From an uncultured Chthonomonadaceae bacterium (GTDB lineage Bacteria > Armatimonadota > Chthonomonadetes > Chthonomonadales > Chthonomonadaceae), in contig CAWFQB010000001.1 of the NCBI GenBank assembly GCA_963817895.1, positions 256,001 through 320,000 of the forward strand: 64,000 nt of DNA. Reading direction: 5' to 3'. The position numbers were made by a program, and so were the translations under genes. Below, piece after piece: positions 30,287-37,415 of this stretch (its first letter is position 1; each line of letters begins with the position of its first letter). The notes beneath the pieces were generated by a model. It was given only the letters and a program-made list of their open reading frames with translations. It was not told where the DNA came from and searched no databases.

Positions 30287-33200
30287 ATGAGACAGACGGT
30301 CAACAACCGAACTCTTAGTAATTCAGGCAAAACAGCCCTGCTGACGCATGAAGGCTTTAGCAGTCATTTGTACCATGATACATCAGGCCATTGCACCATT
30401 GGGTACGGGCATCTGGTGCATTATGGCAGCTGTAACGGCAGTGAACCGGGCGAGTTCAAAACCGGCATTAATAAAGACCGCGCCGCGCAGTTGTTCAGCG
30501 CGAAAGTGAAAGAGTTCGAGCAGGCCGTGAATACACTGACAAGTGTTCCGCTTTCCCAGAACCAATTCGACGCGCTGGTAAGTTTTGCCTACAATGTCGG
30601 GGTTCCCGCGTTCCAGAATTCTACGCTGTTGCGCGAACTAAATCAGGGGCATTACGCGTCCGTCCCGGGTGAAATGGCGAAATGGGTCCATTCAGGCGGC
30701 AAGCGTACCAAAGGGCTGGTCACGCGGCACGCGGACGAAGCGGCTCTCTTTATACGGGTCAGTGAAAACACTCCTGTTAGCCGGGGCTGTGGGCGGCGCC
30801 GCTGCCGCATTGGGAAAGCAACTTCAGGAGCAGCATGGAACCGCGAAAGCAGGCAAAACCACGCCCGGACTGGCCGCGCAGCAGTTCGCGCAGGCAAAGA
30901 TGCAGGGTTATGGCGCAGTGGACGCGGATCAGGCGGAGGCGCTGACGCAGCGCCTGAGCGGGCATGTGCATTACCACTGGGGCGGTAAAATCCGACCGAC
31001 AACGAGCGTGGATGCCATCCTCGGAGACCCGAAAAAATATGGCTCCATTGACTGCTCGGGCTATGTGCGCTGGCTGGTCTACCAAACTTCGGGCGGCGCG
31101 CTCCAGTTGGGCGAAGGCTCGATACAGATCGGCAAAGATTTAGAGCGGCTGGCGCAAAAAGGCGTGGTGACGAAGTGCGGCTATGAGGATGCGGGCAAGC
31201 AGGACGGTGTGATGCGAATCGCCGGCTTCGATCATGGCGGCGACCATCGGCACGTATGGGGCGTGGTAAATGGCGAAACGATGGAGAGTCGCGGCGGTCA
31301 GAACCATATTGGCGTAAGCCGCCAGCCGTGGAGAGTTTATGCCCGCTCGAAAGCCTGGTGCTATGCTCTGCCTACGAGCCACTCCCACGCATTGCAAGCC
31401 GCCCATGACCCCGCGCTTCCTCACGCGGCGCATGCGAACATAGGACAGGCCGGACACGGCGCGGCACACCTGGCGCAGCTGAAAATTCAGCAGGCGCATG
31501 TCGCGGGACACATTGATACCGATGAGGCTATCGCTCTGACCGCACGGCTGCGGGGGCATGTCGGCTACGGCTGGGGCAGCAAACTGAGTCCCAATACCGA
31601 CATCGAAACAATATTAAAAAATCCACAAAAATACAAGCAGATTGACTGCTCCGGGTATGTTACCTGGCTGGTGCGGCAGACCTCGGGGGGCAGCATTCCC
31701 CTGAGCGGTGGCTCCATCCAGATCGGAAACCAGCTGCATGGATTGGCGCAAAAAGGCGTGGTGACGCAATGCAGCTATGCGGATGCGGGCAAGCGCGATG
31801 GCGTGATGCGAATTGCCGGGTTTAATCATGGCGGCAGGCATCAGCATGTATGGGCCGTTGTGAATGGCGAGACGCTGGAGAGTCACGGCGGCAAGGGCGT
31901 GGATCGGCTGCCCTGGGCGCACTACGCCCCTCGTACGCAGTGGTGTTACGCCCTGCCGTCTCACTCCCACGCCGGAGGCGACACGGACGGACCCGCCTTG
32001 CATCCCGCTCATCATGAGAATGGCGCGGTGGCAGGGCAGGCAGCGCCACTTCTCAGGGGCAAAGTGACGAAACACGGACAGCAAGCGGGCCTCCTGACGG
32101 GAGTAAGCCACTGGCAGCCGTTTATTGACGAGGCGGCAGCCAAATACGGCGTGGACCACAACCTGATTGCTACCGTGATTCAGATTGAAAGCAGAGGCAA
32201 TCCCAACGCGAAATCGCATGTTGGCGCGCTCGGCCTGATGCAGCTTATGCCTGCCGTCGCCACCGAGTTGGGCGTTCACCACCCGCTTGATCCGCGCGAA
32301 AACATTATGGGCGGAACCAAACTGCTGAGTCAGCTTCAAAAGCGCTATCACGGTGATGTGGCGCTCACTCTCGCCGGGTACAATGCCGGACCGGGAAATG
32401 TCCAGAAATATGGCGGGCTTCCCCCGTTCAAGGAGACGCGGCAGTATGTTCAGAGGGGAACAGTTCTCTTCCACAACTTGAGCGATCCCGGCGCGCAGGA
32501 GGCCGCCGCTCACGCGCCGCGCAAAGCGACCGGAGGGCGACAGGTATCCGTTCATGCCGCCGTACCCACCGCCACACACGCCGTGGCTGGCCGGCGCGGC
32601 GGCTCCGATATCCGCCGAGCCACATAGGACCAAAACGGCAGCCGGGGGCAGTCTGGGGCTTCTCATGGCAAAGCCTACGCTCACTGCCGCAGAAATCGCT
32701 CAGGCGCGCGGGCAGATCGAAATGGAGTCGGATGCGCGTAAGCGCGGCGACCTGTACGAGCAGTTACAAACCAAAACTCCATATCATAATCAGCGTAACA
32801 ACCAGAGCGTCGGCAAGGGCGGCAAAGCTATTGGCGACATCATGTGCAACCTGACTTCGACGGCTATGGTGCTGGAAACGCTGGGTATCGGCAATCCCGA
32901 CCCGGGTCACTATCCGCAGTTCGAAGATTATCTGGAACATGTGCGCGTCGCGAATAAACTGCCTGAGCGCACGACGGAGGGCGGATGGGGCGGCGTTGCG
33001 GCAAAAATGGGCGCGAAATACAAGATGCCTGGGACGCAACATAAAAGCGGATCATCCCTGGTGGGAAACTACCGTTCGCCCTTCCCTGCGCAGTGGCAAT
33101 TCTGTCCTGATGAGCAATACGGGCCATATTATGCGCTTACAGGGCGTCGGCGAAAGTGGGCTGGTTGTAGACGACCCCTATGGACATGAGAAGCTGCTGC

Positions 33201-36200: not shown

Positions 36201-37415
36201 TGTCGGGGTAGCAACAGGGTTGGGAGTGATTGGCGGTGGGCTTACGGGTGGCTTCAGTGAAACATTGCTGCGCTTGAATGCTGGAACATTAAGTCGAATG
36301 TTCACCAGTGGCGCGAGCGCCGCTGCCGGCACTGGCGCAACCGCGGCGATTTAAGAAGGCATGGACGCGCATGACGCGCATCGCGCATTCAGCGCCTTGA
36401 CGGTTATAAAGCAAATGCTGACCAACTTTGGTCTGGGGGCGCTACAGGCAAGTCCCAAACACAACAATGACCTGGCCGTAGCGTTGCAAACGCTGGAAGA
36501 TACCCGAAAGGCCGCAACTACACCGGCGAAGAGCGCCATAGTAGGAGATAAAGCCACTGCGCCTCCAACTGCCACAGGGTCACCTACAGATACGATACCC
36601 CCCAAAAACCTGCACAAAGATGCCTGGCTGGGCGGCAAATACGTTGAAAAGACAACTGCAAAGAAGATGTATATGGTGCGCGCCAATGACAAAGAACTCG
36701 ATGTCAAAGGTTCTTATGGCAATCTGCTGTTCGGCGATCTGGCAAAAGCGGAGGCTTATGCACATCATTTGGCTGGAACCGGCGAAGAATCTATTCGCAA
36801 CACGAACGCTTTGAGCAGCCGCTGGAAATCCGGTCAGATAGGTAACCGCATTGATGTCGTGCGTATTTATGAAGTGCCGGTGGCACAGACTACCGCACCG
36901 GCAAAGTCGCGCCACAAATTGAGAAGTTGAGCGGACAAGTGCTGGACGGGGGAGCGCCGCAGGTGCAGGTGTTGGCACACTCAGATAAGTTGATTCCAGT
37001 TAAAGATGTTAAAGTTCCCATTTTGGATATTGGGCGTCCTGTAGGACACATGGATGATCCTTTATCTGTTCCGCCCGGCACGAACGTCCCAACCATTATA
37101 GGCATACCGGATGCAAACGGCAAAATTATCGGCCATCGGCCCTACACAGGTCCTGCATTGGATCAGATGCAGCGATATGGTGTTTTGCCATGGGGCGTTG
37201 ATGAATGTATTCATTATGGCAAGCGCACCTATCTTGGCGATGTTATCGAGTATCGTTTTGAAGAGAAGAACATTGTTGTCCGTGTCGCCGTACCGACAAA
37301 AGATCAGGTGAAGGCAGACCGCGCCTCGGCAAAAAAATATAACACAAAGCAGGAAAACAGGCTGATGAACCCGGAAACCTGGGATGTAGTCAGTATTGAC
37401 AAAATCCATCGTTAG
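30287..37415 (+). CDS. Giant DUF4157-containing CIS effector: GH24 lysozyme, 2x NlpC/P60, SLT, C39-like, DUF4157, unknown domain, hydrophobic region, TNT-like, RNase-like; split by ~6 frameshifts and one in-frame TAA
   Basis: Overlapping ORFs at 30287, 30669, 32554, 32939, 33243, 33673, 36361 and 36927 join into continuous domains. Motifs include E-x8-D-x5-T, DCSGYV twice, IES..NP.A.S..GA.GLMQLMP, CNLTS..M, GH/DDPYG and [10 protein letters not shown]...[11 protein letters not shown]. Confidence 0.75.

Follow-up and report, generated by a model that had tools for sequence, protein, structure and literature searches.

The domain DUF4157 is a marker of effectors of extracellular contractile injection systems (eCIS; PMC8213781, PMC11297309), and the cited sections of the eCIS reports place it at the N-terminus of the toxins, behind a short disordered leader (PMC8213781, PMC11297309, PMC8894135, bioRxiv 10.64898/2026.05.27.728243). 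According to the cited part of PMC11126660, a much longer effector, Tme (BN159_7576) of Streptomyces davawensis, has DUF4157 at the N-terminus and an EndA-like nuclease at the C-terminus of its 2,247 aa, contains transmembrane helices and is homologous to tape measure proteins; the criteria given there for Tme-like genes are length, N-terminal DUF4157 and synteny. Here we describe a giant DUF4157 gene from an uncultured soil bacterium of the Chthonomonadaceae (Armatimonadota), found in a contractile injection system (CIS) cluster within a 64,000 nt stretch of DNA (the window; assembly GCA_963817895.1, contig CAWFQB010000001.1, positions 256,001–320,000). The genome (G000) comprises 7.48 Mb in 14 contigs and has a completeness of 80.96%. 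Coordinates are window positions on the + strand unless stated, and the giant gene denotes nt 30287–37415. We read this region, with a probability of about 0.68, as one tape-measure-like giant CIS effector gene of ~2,375 codons that assembly errors have broken into eight pieces. The order of modules from N- to C-terminus is most likely a GH24 lysozyme, two NlpC/P60 domains, an SLT transglycosylase, a C39_2-like peptidase, DUF4157 with an extension, a variable domain, a Gly/Ala-rich region and two cargo modules.

Like Tme, the giant gene is probably one very long open reading frame (ORF) in a CIS cluster, near tube-initiator and spike genes, and combines DUF4157 with hydrophobic segments and C-terminal cargo. 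The gene order (effector, tube, tube initiator, spike) also resembles the S. davawensis gene numbering given in PMC11126660, and the kind of nuclease found in Tme, a non-specific endonuclease, occurs in relatives of the giant gene (P0010, P0050–52). Compared with Tme as described, however, DUF4157 is preceded by ~1,080 residues (at least 340) of folded wall hydrolases rather than by disordered sequence, and the C-terminal cargo is not a nuclease. Because DUF4157 is not N-terminal and tape-measure homology was undetected, the protein is considered only to work like Tme and is not filed as a member of the Tme family. With the DUF4157 eCIS-associated toxins (EATs) and the AlgoCIS cargo Cgo1/Cgo2, as presented in the cited sections, it shares an HExxH core encoded in a CIS locus, a long linker and variable toxin domains, and as in published eCIS loci a GerE-type regulator and XisH/XisI genes lie nearby. 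Those toxins begin with a short disordered loading sequence, whereas the giant protein, two to five times their length, opens with an enzyme domain. Phage tape measure proteins such as gp41 (PDB 9b45) resemble it in gene position, an embedded SLT domain and hydrophobic Gly/Ala segments, and differ in lacking DUF4157 and toxin end modules; outside the SLT domain there is no match to a tape-measure family, and the ruler may be a second long protein of the cluster. In the phage tail-like particle of Streptomyces lividans, Sle1/Sle2 are likewise tape-measure-like cargo with an exchangeable C-terminal module and an association with DUF4157, but in the account given in PMC13277306 the cargo and DUF4157 are separate proteins, whereas here they form one polypeptide.

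Among the papers listed by literature searches on DUF4157 together with contractile injection or tape measure, none was found to describe a DUF4157 in the middle of a protein that is preceded by folded wall hydrolases, and the term 'Armatimonad' is absent from the main text of PMC12210884 and PMC11126660. A first-pass annotation of the window, made from the sequence alone, knew of no described effector with this architecture. The architecture does have precedents: Tme-like effectors have been published (PMC11126660) and intact look-alikes are present in the databases. The layout is already deposited in intact database proteins, and the window copy is an unusual variant of a known effector type, most likely damaged by assembly errors.

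Results

The giant gene consists of eight overlapping or abutting stop-to-stop frames separated by six frame shifts and one in-frame TAA. These are fragments 1 (nt 30287–30988), 2 (30642–32627), 3 (32482–33189), 4 (32855–33400), 5 (33237–33875), 6 (33577–36354), 7 (36355–36930) and 8 (36873–37415). A codon-usage frame tracker, trained on four intact window genes, followed the coding signal through frames 1>2>0>1>2>0>2 over the whole stretch without a non-coding gap; five of the shifts are +1 and one is -1. The eight ORF fragments of the first-pass annotation were recovered, together with the four junction motifs it had quoted, which (a slash marking the break) are KM/LGRNIK near 33028, NML/(A)VAAFSK near 33313, and those beginning QSA/(L) near 33625 and EVP/(T) near 36890, and the single in-frame TAA at 36352–36354 (junction 6). 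The motif continuity that it had assumed at every shift is missing at junctions 1 and 2, which also have no bridging homologue.

Intact homologues join most of the pieces. When fragment 6 was searched against longer proteins, with a minimum length of 1,620 aa, 53 relatives (1,622–3,167 aa) were recovered, all of which carry DUF4157; the names given to several of the homologues agree with a placement in Armatimonadota. The intact protein P0010 (1,999 aa) is collinear with fragments 3, 4, 5 and 6, and two others, P0012 and P0014, with fragments 5, 6, 7 and 8, so that five of the seven breaks (junctions 3–7) are read straight through. When the TAA of junction 6 was set to X, the alignments to P0001, P0003 and P0004 continued for 19–24 residues past the junction, and in the conserved block around the stop all three have a sense residue at its position. 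Since intact homologues are collinear across junctions 3–7, these are breaks inside one gene and, judged from the alignments, fragments 3–8 are a single gene. By the same measure the fragmented giant reading is far beyond chance, the collinear homologues over the five breaks giving E-values of 1e-10 to 1e-113. The search for intact homologues that had been proposed with the first-pass annotation was therefore productive for junctions 3–7; as to the single ~2,370-aa protein it had envisaged, fragments 3–8 are joined by intact proteins while junctions 1 and 2 are bridged by none. Joining all eight fragments gives a length of ~2,375 codons, of which fragments 3–8 by themselves account for about 1,620 or more.

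The giant gene occupies the slot of a tape measure gene, lying after the sheath, tube and chaperone-like genes and before the second tube, tube initiator and spike genes. Its diagnostic domain is DUF4157 (~33520–33768), which lies within a segment made up of a linker, DUF4157/eCIS_core and a ~130-aa conserved extension (33313–34158), split by junctions 4 (~33313) and 5 (~33625). The eCIS_core family (PF13699) matches with an E-value of 2.3e-16 (60.1 bits, against a cut-off of 22 bits), and this is the only match in the genome. The match covers profile positions 27–78 in fragment 6; an alignment to 36 homologues places the first part of the domain in fragment 5, beyond the frame shift. The HExxH motif is present as HELTH (33733–33747), and the ~130-aa extension is conserved in most of the long homologues. 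DUF4157 starts at about residue 1,080 of the joined reading, or at least about 320 residues from an ATG at 32554, compared with 879–1406 in the 15 intact long homologues covered by a Pfam domain scan, and 1376 and 1426 in the proteins of two intact genomes of the same order, G029 (100% complete) and G028 (99% complete). The designation as a DUF4157 effector of a CIS is well founded, resting on the PF13699 match inside the CIS cluster.

Wall hydrolases make up the N-terminal part. The GH24 phage-type lysozyme (30287–30763; residues 21–151) matches Pfam Phage_lysozyme (PF00959) over profile positions 3–125 of 125 with an E-value of 2.6e-40, and the endolysin family phrog_7 with 8.9e-41. The SLT lytic transglycosylase (32124–32444; PF01464, E 3.3e-28) covers profile positions 3–115 of 117, and its best solved relative is the phage tape measure protein gp41 (9b45, E 3.4e-15). 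Both calls of the first-pass annotation are borne out by these full-profile matches. Between them lie two NlpC/P60 repeats (30921–31373 and 31515–31958), mutually 66% identical, which were recognised by fold, the Pfam NLPC_P60 match being weak (E 1.6e-5). An AlphaFold2 model of repeat 1 had a predicted local distance difference test (pLDDT) score of 92.2, and its top Foldseek matches in the PDB were NlpC/P60 endopeptidases and endolysins (Acd24020, MepS, SagA and CwlO; probability 1.00, template modelling (TM) score 0.54–0.63). In an alignment of both repeats with nine relatives from the phylum, Cys45 and His111 were invariant in all 11 sequences. The model and the invariant residues confirm the prediction of two NlpC/P60-type cysteine peptidase domains with a papain-like fold and a Cys-His pair, in agreement with the earlier call.

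The next module, a possible C39_2-like papain-type peptidase (32644–33313), is split by junction 3 (~33028–33040) and was delimited by alignment to P0010, with which it is collinear over residues 554–824 (E 7.8e-40 and 1.6e-15). Peptidase_C39_2 (PF13529) scored below its cut-off of 24 bits both here (E 0.042, 14.9 bits) and in the P0010 segment (E 7.9e-4, 20.4 bits). The motifs GDIMCN and GHI..VVDDPYG, which contain the Cys and the His, are common to the window, P0010 and more distant metagenomic relatives such as L063. The earlier C39-like call is retained as a weak one, with the motifs in its favour and the sub-threshold profile scores against it.

Beyond the DUF4157 extension the protein continues with a variable middle domain (34159–35256), which is 42–43% identical to P0002 and P0005 and 50% to G015, and which had no match in Pfam, PHROG, NCBIfam, the PDB or Atlas. 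It is followed by a Gly/Ala-rich region (35269–36351) with 41–42% identity to P0001, P0003 and P0004 over 367–389 aa. Kyte-Doolittle analysis places transmembrane-like segments at 35698–35811 (residues 708–745 of fragment 6), as expected from the hydrophobic Gly/Ala region in the first description, whose DUF4157 was equally upheld by Pfam and the HExxH motif. Weak PDB matches to retroviral proteases (E at least 0.009) map to the Gly/Ala region and were discounted as an effect of its composition.

Two cargo sub-domains close the protein. Sub-domain 1 (36628–37007) is split by junction 7 (~36885–36895) and is continuous in P0012 and P0014. It had been called TNT-like, a label that the searches did not support: TNT (PF14021) gave no match even at E≤10 in the fragments, the intact P0012 segment or the six-frame translated genome. 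Searches with the cargo end returned nothing usable from Pfam at E≤10, PHROGs, NCBIfam, sequence and profile searches of the PDB, or Atlas, and a first metagenome scan with the toxin end gave no matches; a single-sequence AlphaFold model was poor (pLDDT 42.5). Pentatricopeptide repeat (PPR) matches at the toxin end are repeats of one 15-residue stretch and were dismissed as meaningless. In another genome (G284:C8, L059) an ORF open for 887 aa, of which 584 aa were seen, carries a BURPS668_1122-type deaminase followed by a C-terminal module weakly related to sub-domain 1, which is another tandem-toxin arrangement. Sub-domain 2 (37098–37415), a DUF4258-like end module of the polymorphic-toxin kind, is followed by the stop codon. 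Five other Armatimonadota genomes encode relatives of it, placed at the C-terminal ends of RHS-type and PT-HINT proteins (7 of 401 genomes match the profile, its own included). DUF4258 (PF14076) gave sub-threshold matches in four of the five relatives' ORFs scanned, at 12.7–24.5 bits against a cut-off of 25 bits (best E 3.3e-5), and sub-domain 2 itself had no direct DUF4258 match. DUF4258 is presumably an RNase-type toxin. The RNase-like call of the first-pass annotation is therefore weakly suggested, by sub-threshold and transitive matches to relatives at polymorphic-toxin C-termini, and lacks a direct match.

Intact relatives provide precedents for this architecture. Among the 15 long homologues scanned, four carry a wall hydrolase, scored above the Pfam cut-off, on the N-terminal side of DUF4157. 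The order in P0021 is Muramidase (49–237), DUF4157 at 1078 and AHH at 2289; in P0008, P0014 and P0015, Glucosaminidase immediately precedes DUF4157, and in P0010 Endonuclea_NS_2 comes after DUF4157. Wall-acting domains also occur C-terminal of DUF4157, namely Peptidase_M15_4 (G015), PG_binding_1 (P0010, P0011 and P0019) and lysozyme (P0284 and P0288). The proposed division into N-terminal wall enzymes and C-terminal toxins is accordingly seen in intact relatives, though some of them place wall-acting domains after DUF4157; judged from these domain matches, the neat N-to-C order of barriers is not universal.

Several observations weigh against a single, tape-measure-like gene broken by assembly errors. 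No homologue bridging junction 1 or 2 was found in searches of the longer proteins, the library or the phylum. Among the longer proteins, the NlpC/P60-SLT block matched four, all SLT proteins and none with DUF4157, and across the phylum relatives of the NlpC/P60 repeats (in 25 of 401 genomes, G000 included) sit in open frames of just 92–454 aa. Junction 1 is explained by one indel whether it is a fusion or a separate lysozyme and secreted hydrolase. The six shifts in 7.1 kb compare with 2.25 expected from the genome mean (Poisson P ~0.03), and none of the seven junctions was crossed by short-read pieces (best 8 of 30 pieces). A tape-measure family was not detected by Pfam or PHROGs outside the SLT likeness, and a downstream 1,226-aa protein (39044–42724) could be the true length ruler. 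Finally, the target, a bacterium in the first-pass annotation, and every step of the mechanism are inferred.

The N-terminal part could instead be two further genes, giving a ~159-aa GH24 lysozyme, a ~620-aa secreted NlpC/P60-NlpC/P60-SLT hydrolase and a ~1,620-aa DUF4157 effector starting near 32554, in which case the first two proteins would not be used for attack but for lysing the producer and releasing the particles, or for remodelling the wall locally. In size the lysozyme module corresponds to a free endolysin, and among NCBIfam entries it most resembles the endolysin of a gene transfer agent (E 1.9e-39, well short of the cut-off). At junction 1 (30745–30790, frame 1 to 2), which may be a frame-shift error or a true gene border, codon usage shows the coding signal departing from fragment 1 near 30755 though the frame is open to 30988, and a third-frame TGA (30761–63) overlaps a GTG (30762) that opens a signal-peptide-like start. 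The same choice applies to junction 2 (32550–32627, frame 2 to 0), where fragment 2 ends at a TAG (32625–27) and the first start of the next frame, ATG 32554, is available 74 nt upstream; the block of homology to P0010 starts 9 residues ahead of a later ATG (32665). The want of a bridging homologue at both junctions suits three genes, and DUF4157 proteins with short N-termini do exist, for example in G032 (domain at 137–214). A whole-library HMMER search with the N-terminal block was dominated by SLT proteins, the best non-self matches being multi-SLT proteins, and a GTDB scan for this block gave three distant Rhizobium matches. A lysozyme query of the longer proteins recovered the lysozyme-DUF4157 fusions P0284 and P0288, but the lysozyme is C-terminal there. 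Three genes would, however, leave the lysozyme frame without a stop before 30988 unless an indel lies there too, would require a 74-nt overlap between genes 2 and 3, and would lack a convincing Shine-Dalgarno sequence ahead of both starts. In G028 and G029, moreover, a single giant ORF (2,603 and 2,549 aa) fills the space between orthologous flanks, with no extra genes; flank identities are 77–81% for the chaperone-like and DUF6760 ORFs, 40–48% for the small downstream ORF and 59–63% for the second tube gene. Intact relatives also have an enzyme domain within the first ~240 residues, in P0021 the Muramidase domain and in G029 a weak alpha/beta-hydrolase match (114–236). A further argument for fusion at junction 2, that DUF4157 is preceded by 660 residues or more in every long homologue, was set aside as biased by the minimum length of 1,620 aa. 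Because the coding signal is continuous, G028 and G029 have one giant ORF and relatives have N-terminal enzymes, fusion across junctions 1 and 2 is favoured; all eight fragments are probably fused in one gene, and three separate genes are unlikely.

The breaks themselves could be real, in which case the effector gene would be a pseudogene in decay and the CIS cluster on its way to loss. They are denser here (0.84 per kb) than on average in the genome (0.31 per kb), neither of the two same-genus genomes searched was found to contain the cluster, and splitting affects other genes at 16–38 kb as well: the sheath gene (27229–29168), a WD40/DUF7619 gene (16109–21026) and a peptidase M1-HEAT gene (23510–26185) over two to four frames, and the first tube gene. 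A survey of frame shifts against 155 ORFs of at least 350 aa, taken from a 400-kb portion of another genome of the genus (97% complete), shows the same kind of damage with the same +1 bias in conserved housekeeping orthologues genome-wide. Under a looser filter (best match at least 60% identical and 70% covered) 18 of 51 orthologue pairs were frame-switched, and under stricter collinearity 16 of 50, with 26 switches in 82.5 kb (0.31 per kb); 22 of the 26 are +1 and four are -1, compared with five of six +1 in the giant gene. Single affected genes reach up to 2.6 shifts per kb. In-frame stops number 15 in 92 kb (0.16 per kb; matches of at least 60% identity), so that about one is expected per 7.1 kb. 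Even rpoC is split over two frames (238 aa and 1,320 aa), while rpoB is whole, and completeness is only 81% despite an assembly of 14 contigs. Codon usage and conserved motifs are preserved in each fragment of the giant gene, which also argues against decay. Short reads contradict the assembly nearby: a soil-metagenome contig is letter-identical to the window except for indels at 37982 and 37992, which extend the adjacent tube ORF to 187 aa from a start codon. A single short-read run was found, containing 0.05 of the sampled words; a few of its contigs are identical to the window, and its contigs cover parts of 28.1–29.8, 32.65–32.99, 33.7–34.3 and 37.8–39 kb. The short-read check suggested with the first-pass annotation therefore succeeded in part, revealing an indel-only difference at the neighbouring tube ORF and leaving the junctions of the giant gene uncovered. 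Since frame switches with the same +1 bias affect orthologues genome-wide, rpoC is split and completeness is 80.96%, the breaks are most likely indel and substitution errors of the assembly, and a decaying gene is very improbable. At ~0.3 frame shifts per kb, split genes in this assembly should not be called pseudogenes.

The remainder of the cluster is that of a CIS. In order, it comprises a GerE-type regulator (13268), XisH/XisI (21840–22609), the sheath, a tube gene, a chaperone-like ORF with a DUF6760 ORF, and the giant gene, followed by a small conserved ORF, the second tube gene, the 1,226-aa protein, CIS_tube, a hub-like protein, a spike OB domain, gp25, Baseplate_J and Tail_P2_I. The sheath, two gp19 tube genes, CIS_tube, spike OB domain, gp25, Baseplate_J and Tail_P2_I genes are on the same strand as the giant gene. 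Unlike the split genes at 16–38 kb, the region from 39 to 56 kb looks largely intact. XisH and XisI, encoded in overlapping frames, lie a short way upstream of the cluster, and both are among the domains listed as enriched around eCIS loci in the cited section of PMC11297309.

Directly upstream of the giant gene, a 132-aa tail-assembly-chaperone-like ORF (29616–30011; phrog_508, E 1.2e-5) is overlapped in another frame by a 93-aa ORF (29863–30141; DUF6760, E 2.6e-17). The same two-frame overlap precedes the giant gene in G029 (L011, 5460–6024) and G028 (L010, 12095–12560, - strand). Phage tail assembly chaperones use a programmed frameshift; by analogy the overlap could be one, or equally two separate genes. 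Downstream are the small conserved ORF (ATG, 37434–37736), 40–48% identical to its G029 and G028 counterparts, and the second gp19-type tube gene (37913–38446; Phage_T4_gp19, E 1.4e-44), 59–63% identical to theirs. The 1,226-aa protein is of low complexity, rich in Ser, Pro, Gly and Ala, and has no family match. It ends in a helix-like motif (..LLASEVWSLLKRRMAVEAERRGRW) that is almost exactly repeated in its 1,311-aa counterpart in G029, and a similar C-terminal motif, VADRVYELMAQELRHGRTRG, closes the small ORF and its G028 and G029 orthologues. The motif shared by the long protein and the small ORF is a possible docking site.

The sole match in the genome to Pvc16_N (tail terminator) lies 7 kb past the window (G000:C1:327158–327683, - strand) and is broken into two frames. 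A scan of the + strand genes as far as 56 kb revealed no AAA+ loader gene. Elsewhere in the genome, second, short matches to rpoB (607–668 and 1010–1146) and rpoC (328–504 and 660–749) adjoin near the end of contig 1 (G000:C1:1673746–1675993, - strand), the main rpoBC locus being on contig 3; they could represent a diverged partial duplicate or foreign DNA.

Discussion

Tme and phage tape measure proteins, as presented in the cited parts of PMC11126660 and PMC13277306, suggest by analogy how the giant protein might work. From its tape-measure slot, the protein would be assembled in the lumen of the tube. DUF4157 may serve as an attachment module to a baseplate or spike component, or as a module that cuts or processes the chain. 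Contraction would expel the giant protein, whereupon the hydrolases would cut the peptidoglycan of the target, the hydrophobic Gly/Ala region would enter the target membrane and the C-terminal modules would act in the cytoplasm.

Looking more widely, a tentative view is that in CIS of Armatimonadota and scattered other phyla the tape-measure slot holds a hypervariable penetrator-effector of 1,700–2,600 aa, distinct from the Tme and EAT types, in which DUF4157 would be the fixed hinge, either anchoring the chain to the baseplate or cleaving it into one half for the wall and one for the cytoplasm. Such an all-in-one effector would have envelope-degrading enzymes before a mid-protein DUF4157, and a membrane-inserting region and exchangeable toxins after it. 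If true, a distinct class would give DUF4157, the most widespread CIS effector marker and one that the cited sections of eCIS papers describe at or near the N-terminus, a testable role. In this gene and its intact relatives a recurrent layout is seen, in which the protein occupies the tape-measure position and ~900–1,400 residues of folded enzymes come before DUF4157. Should this layout hold, one polypeptide could carry tools for the wall, the membrane and the cytoplasm, phage tape measure proteins, Tme-like effectors and polymorphic toxins would be linked, and these proteins would provide natural modular scaffolds for studying the loading and expulsion of very large cargo.

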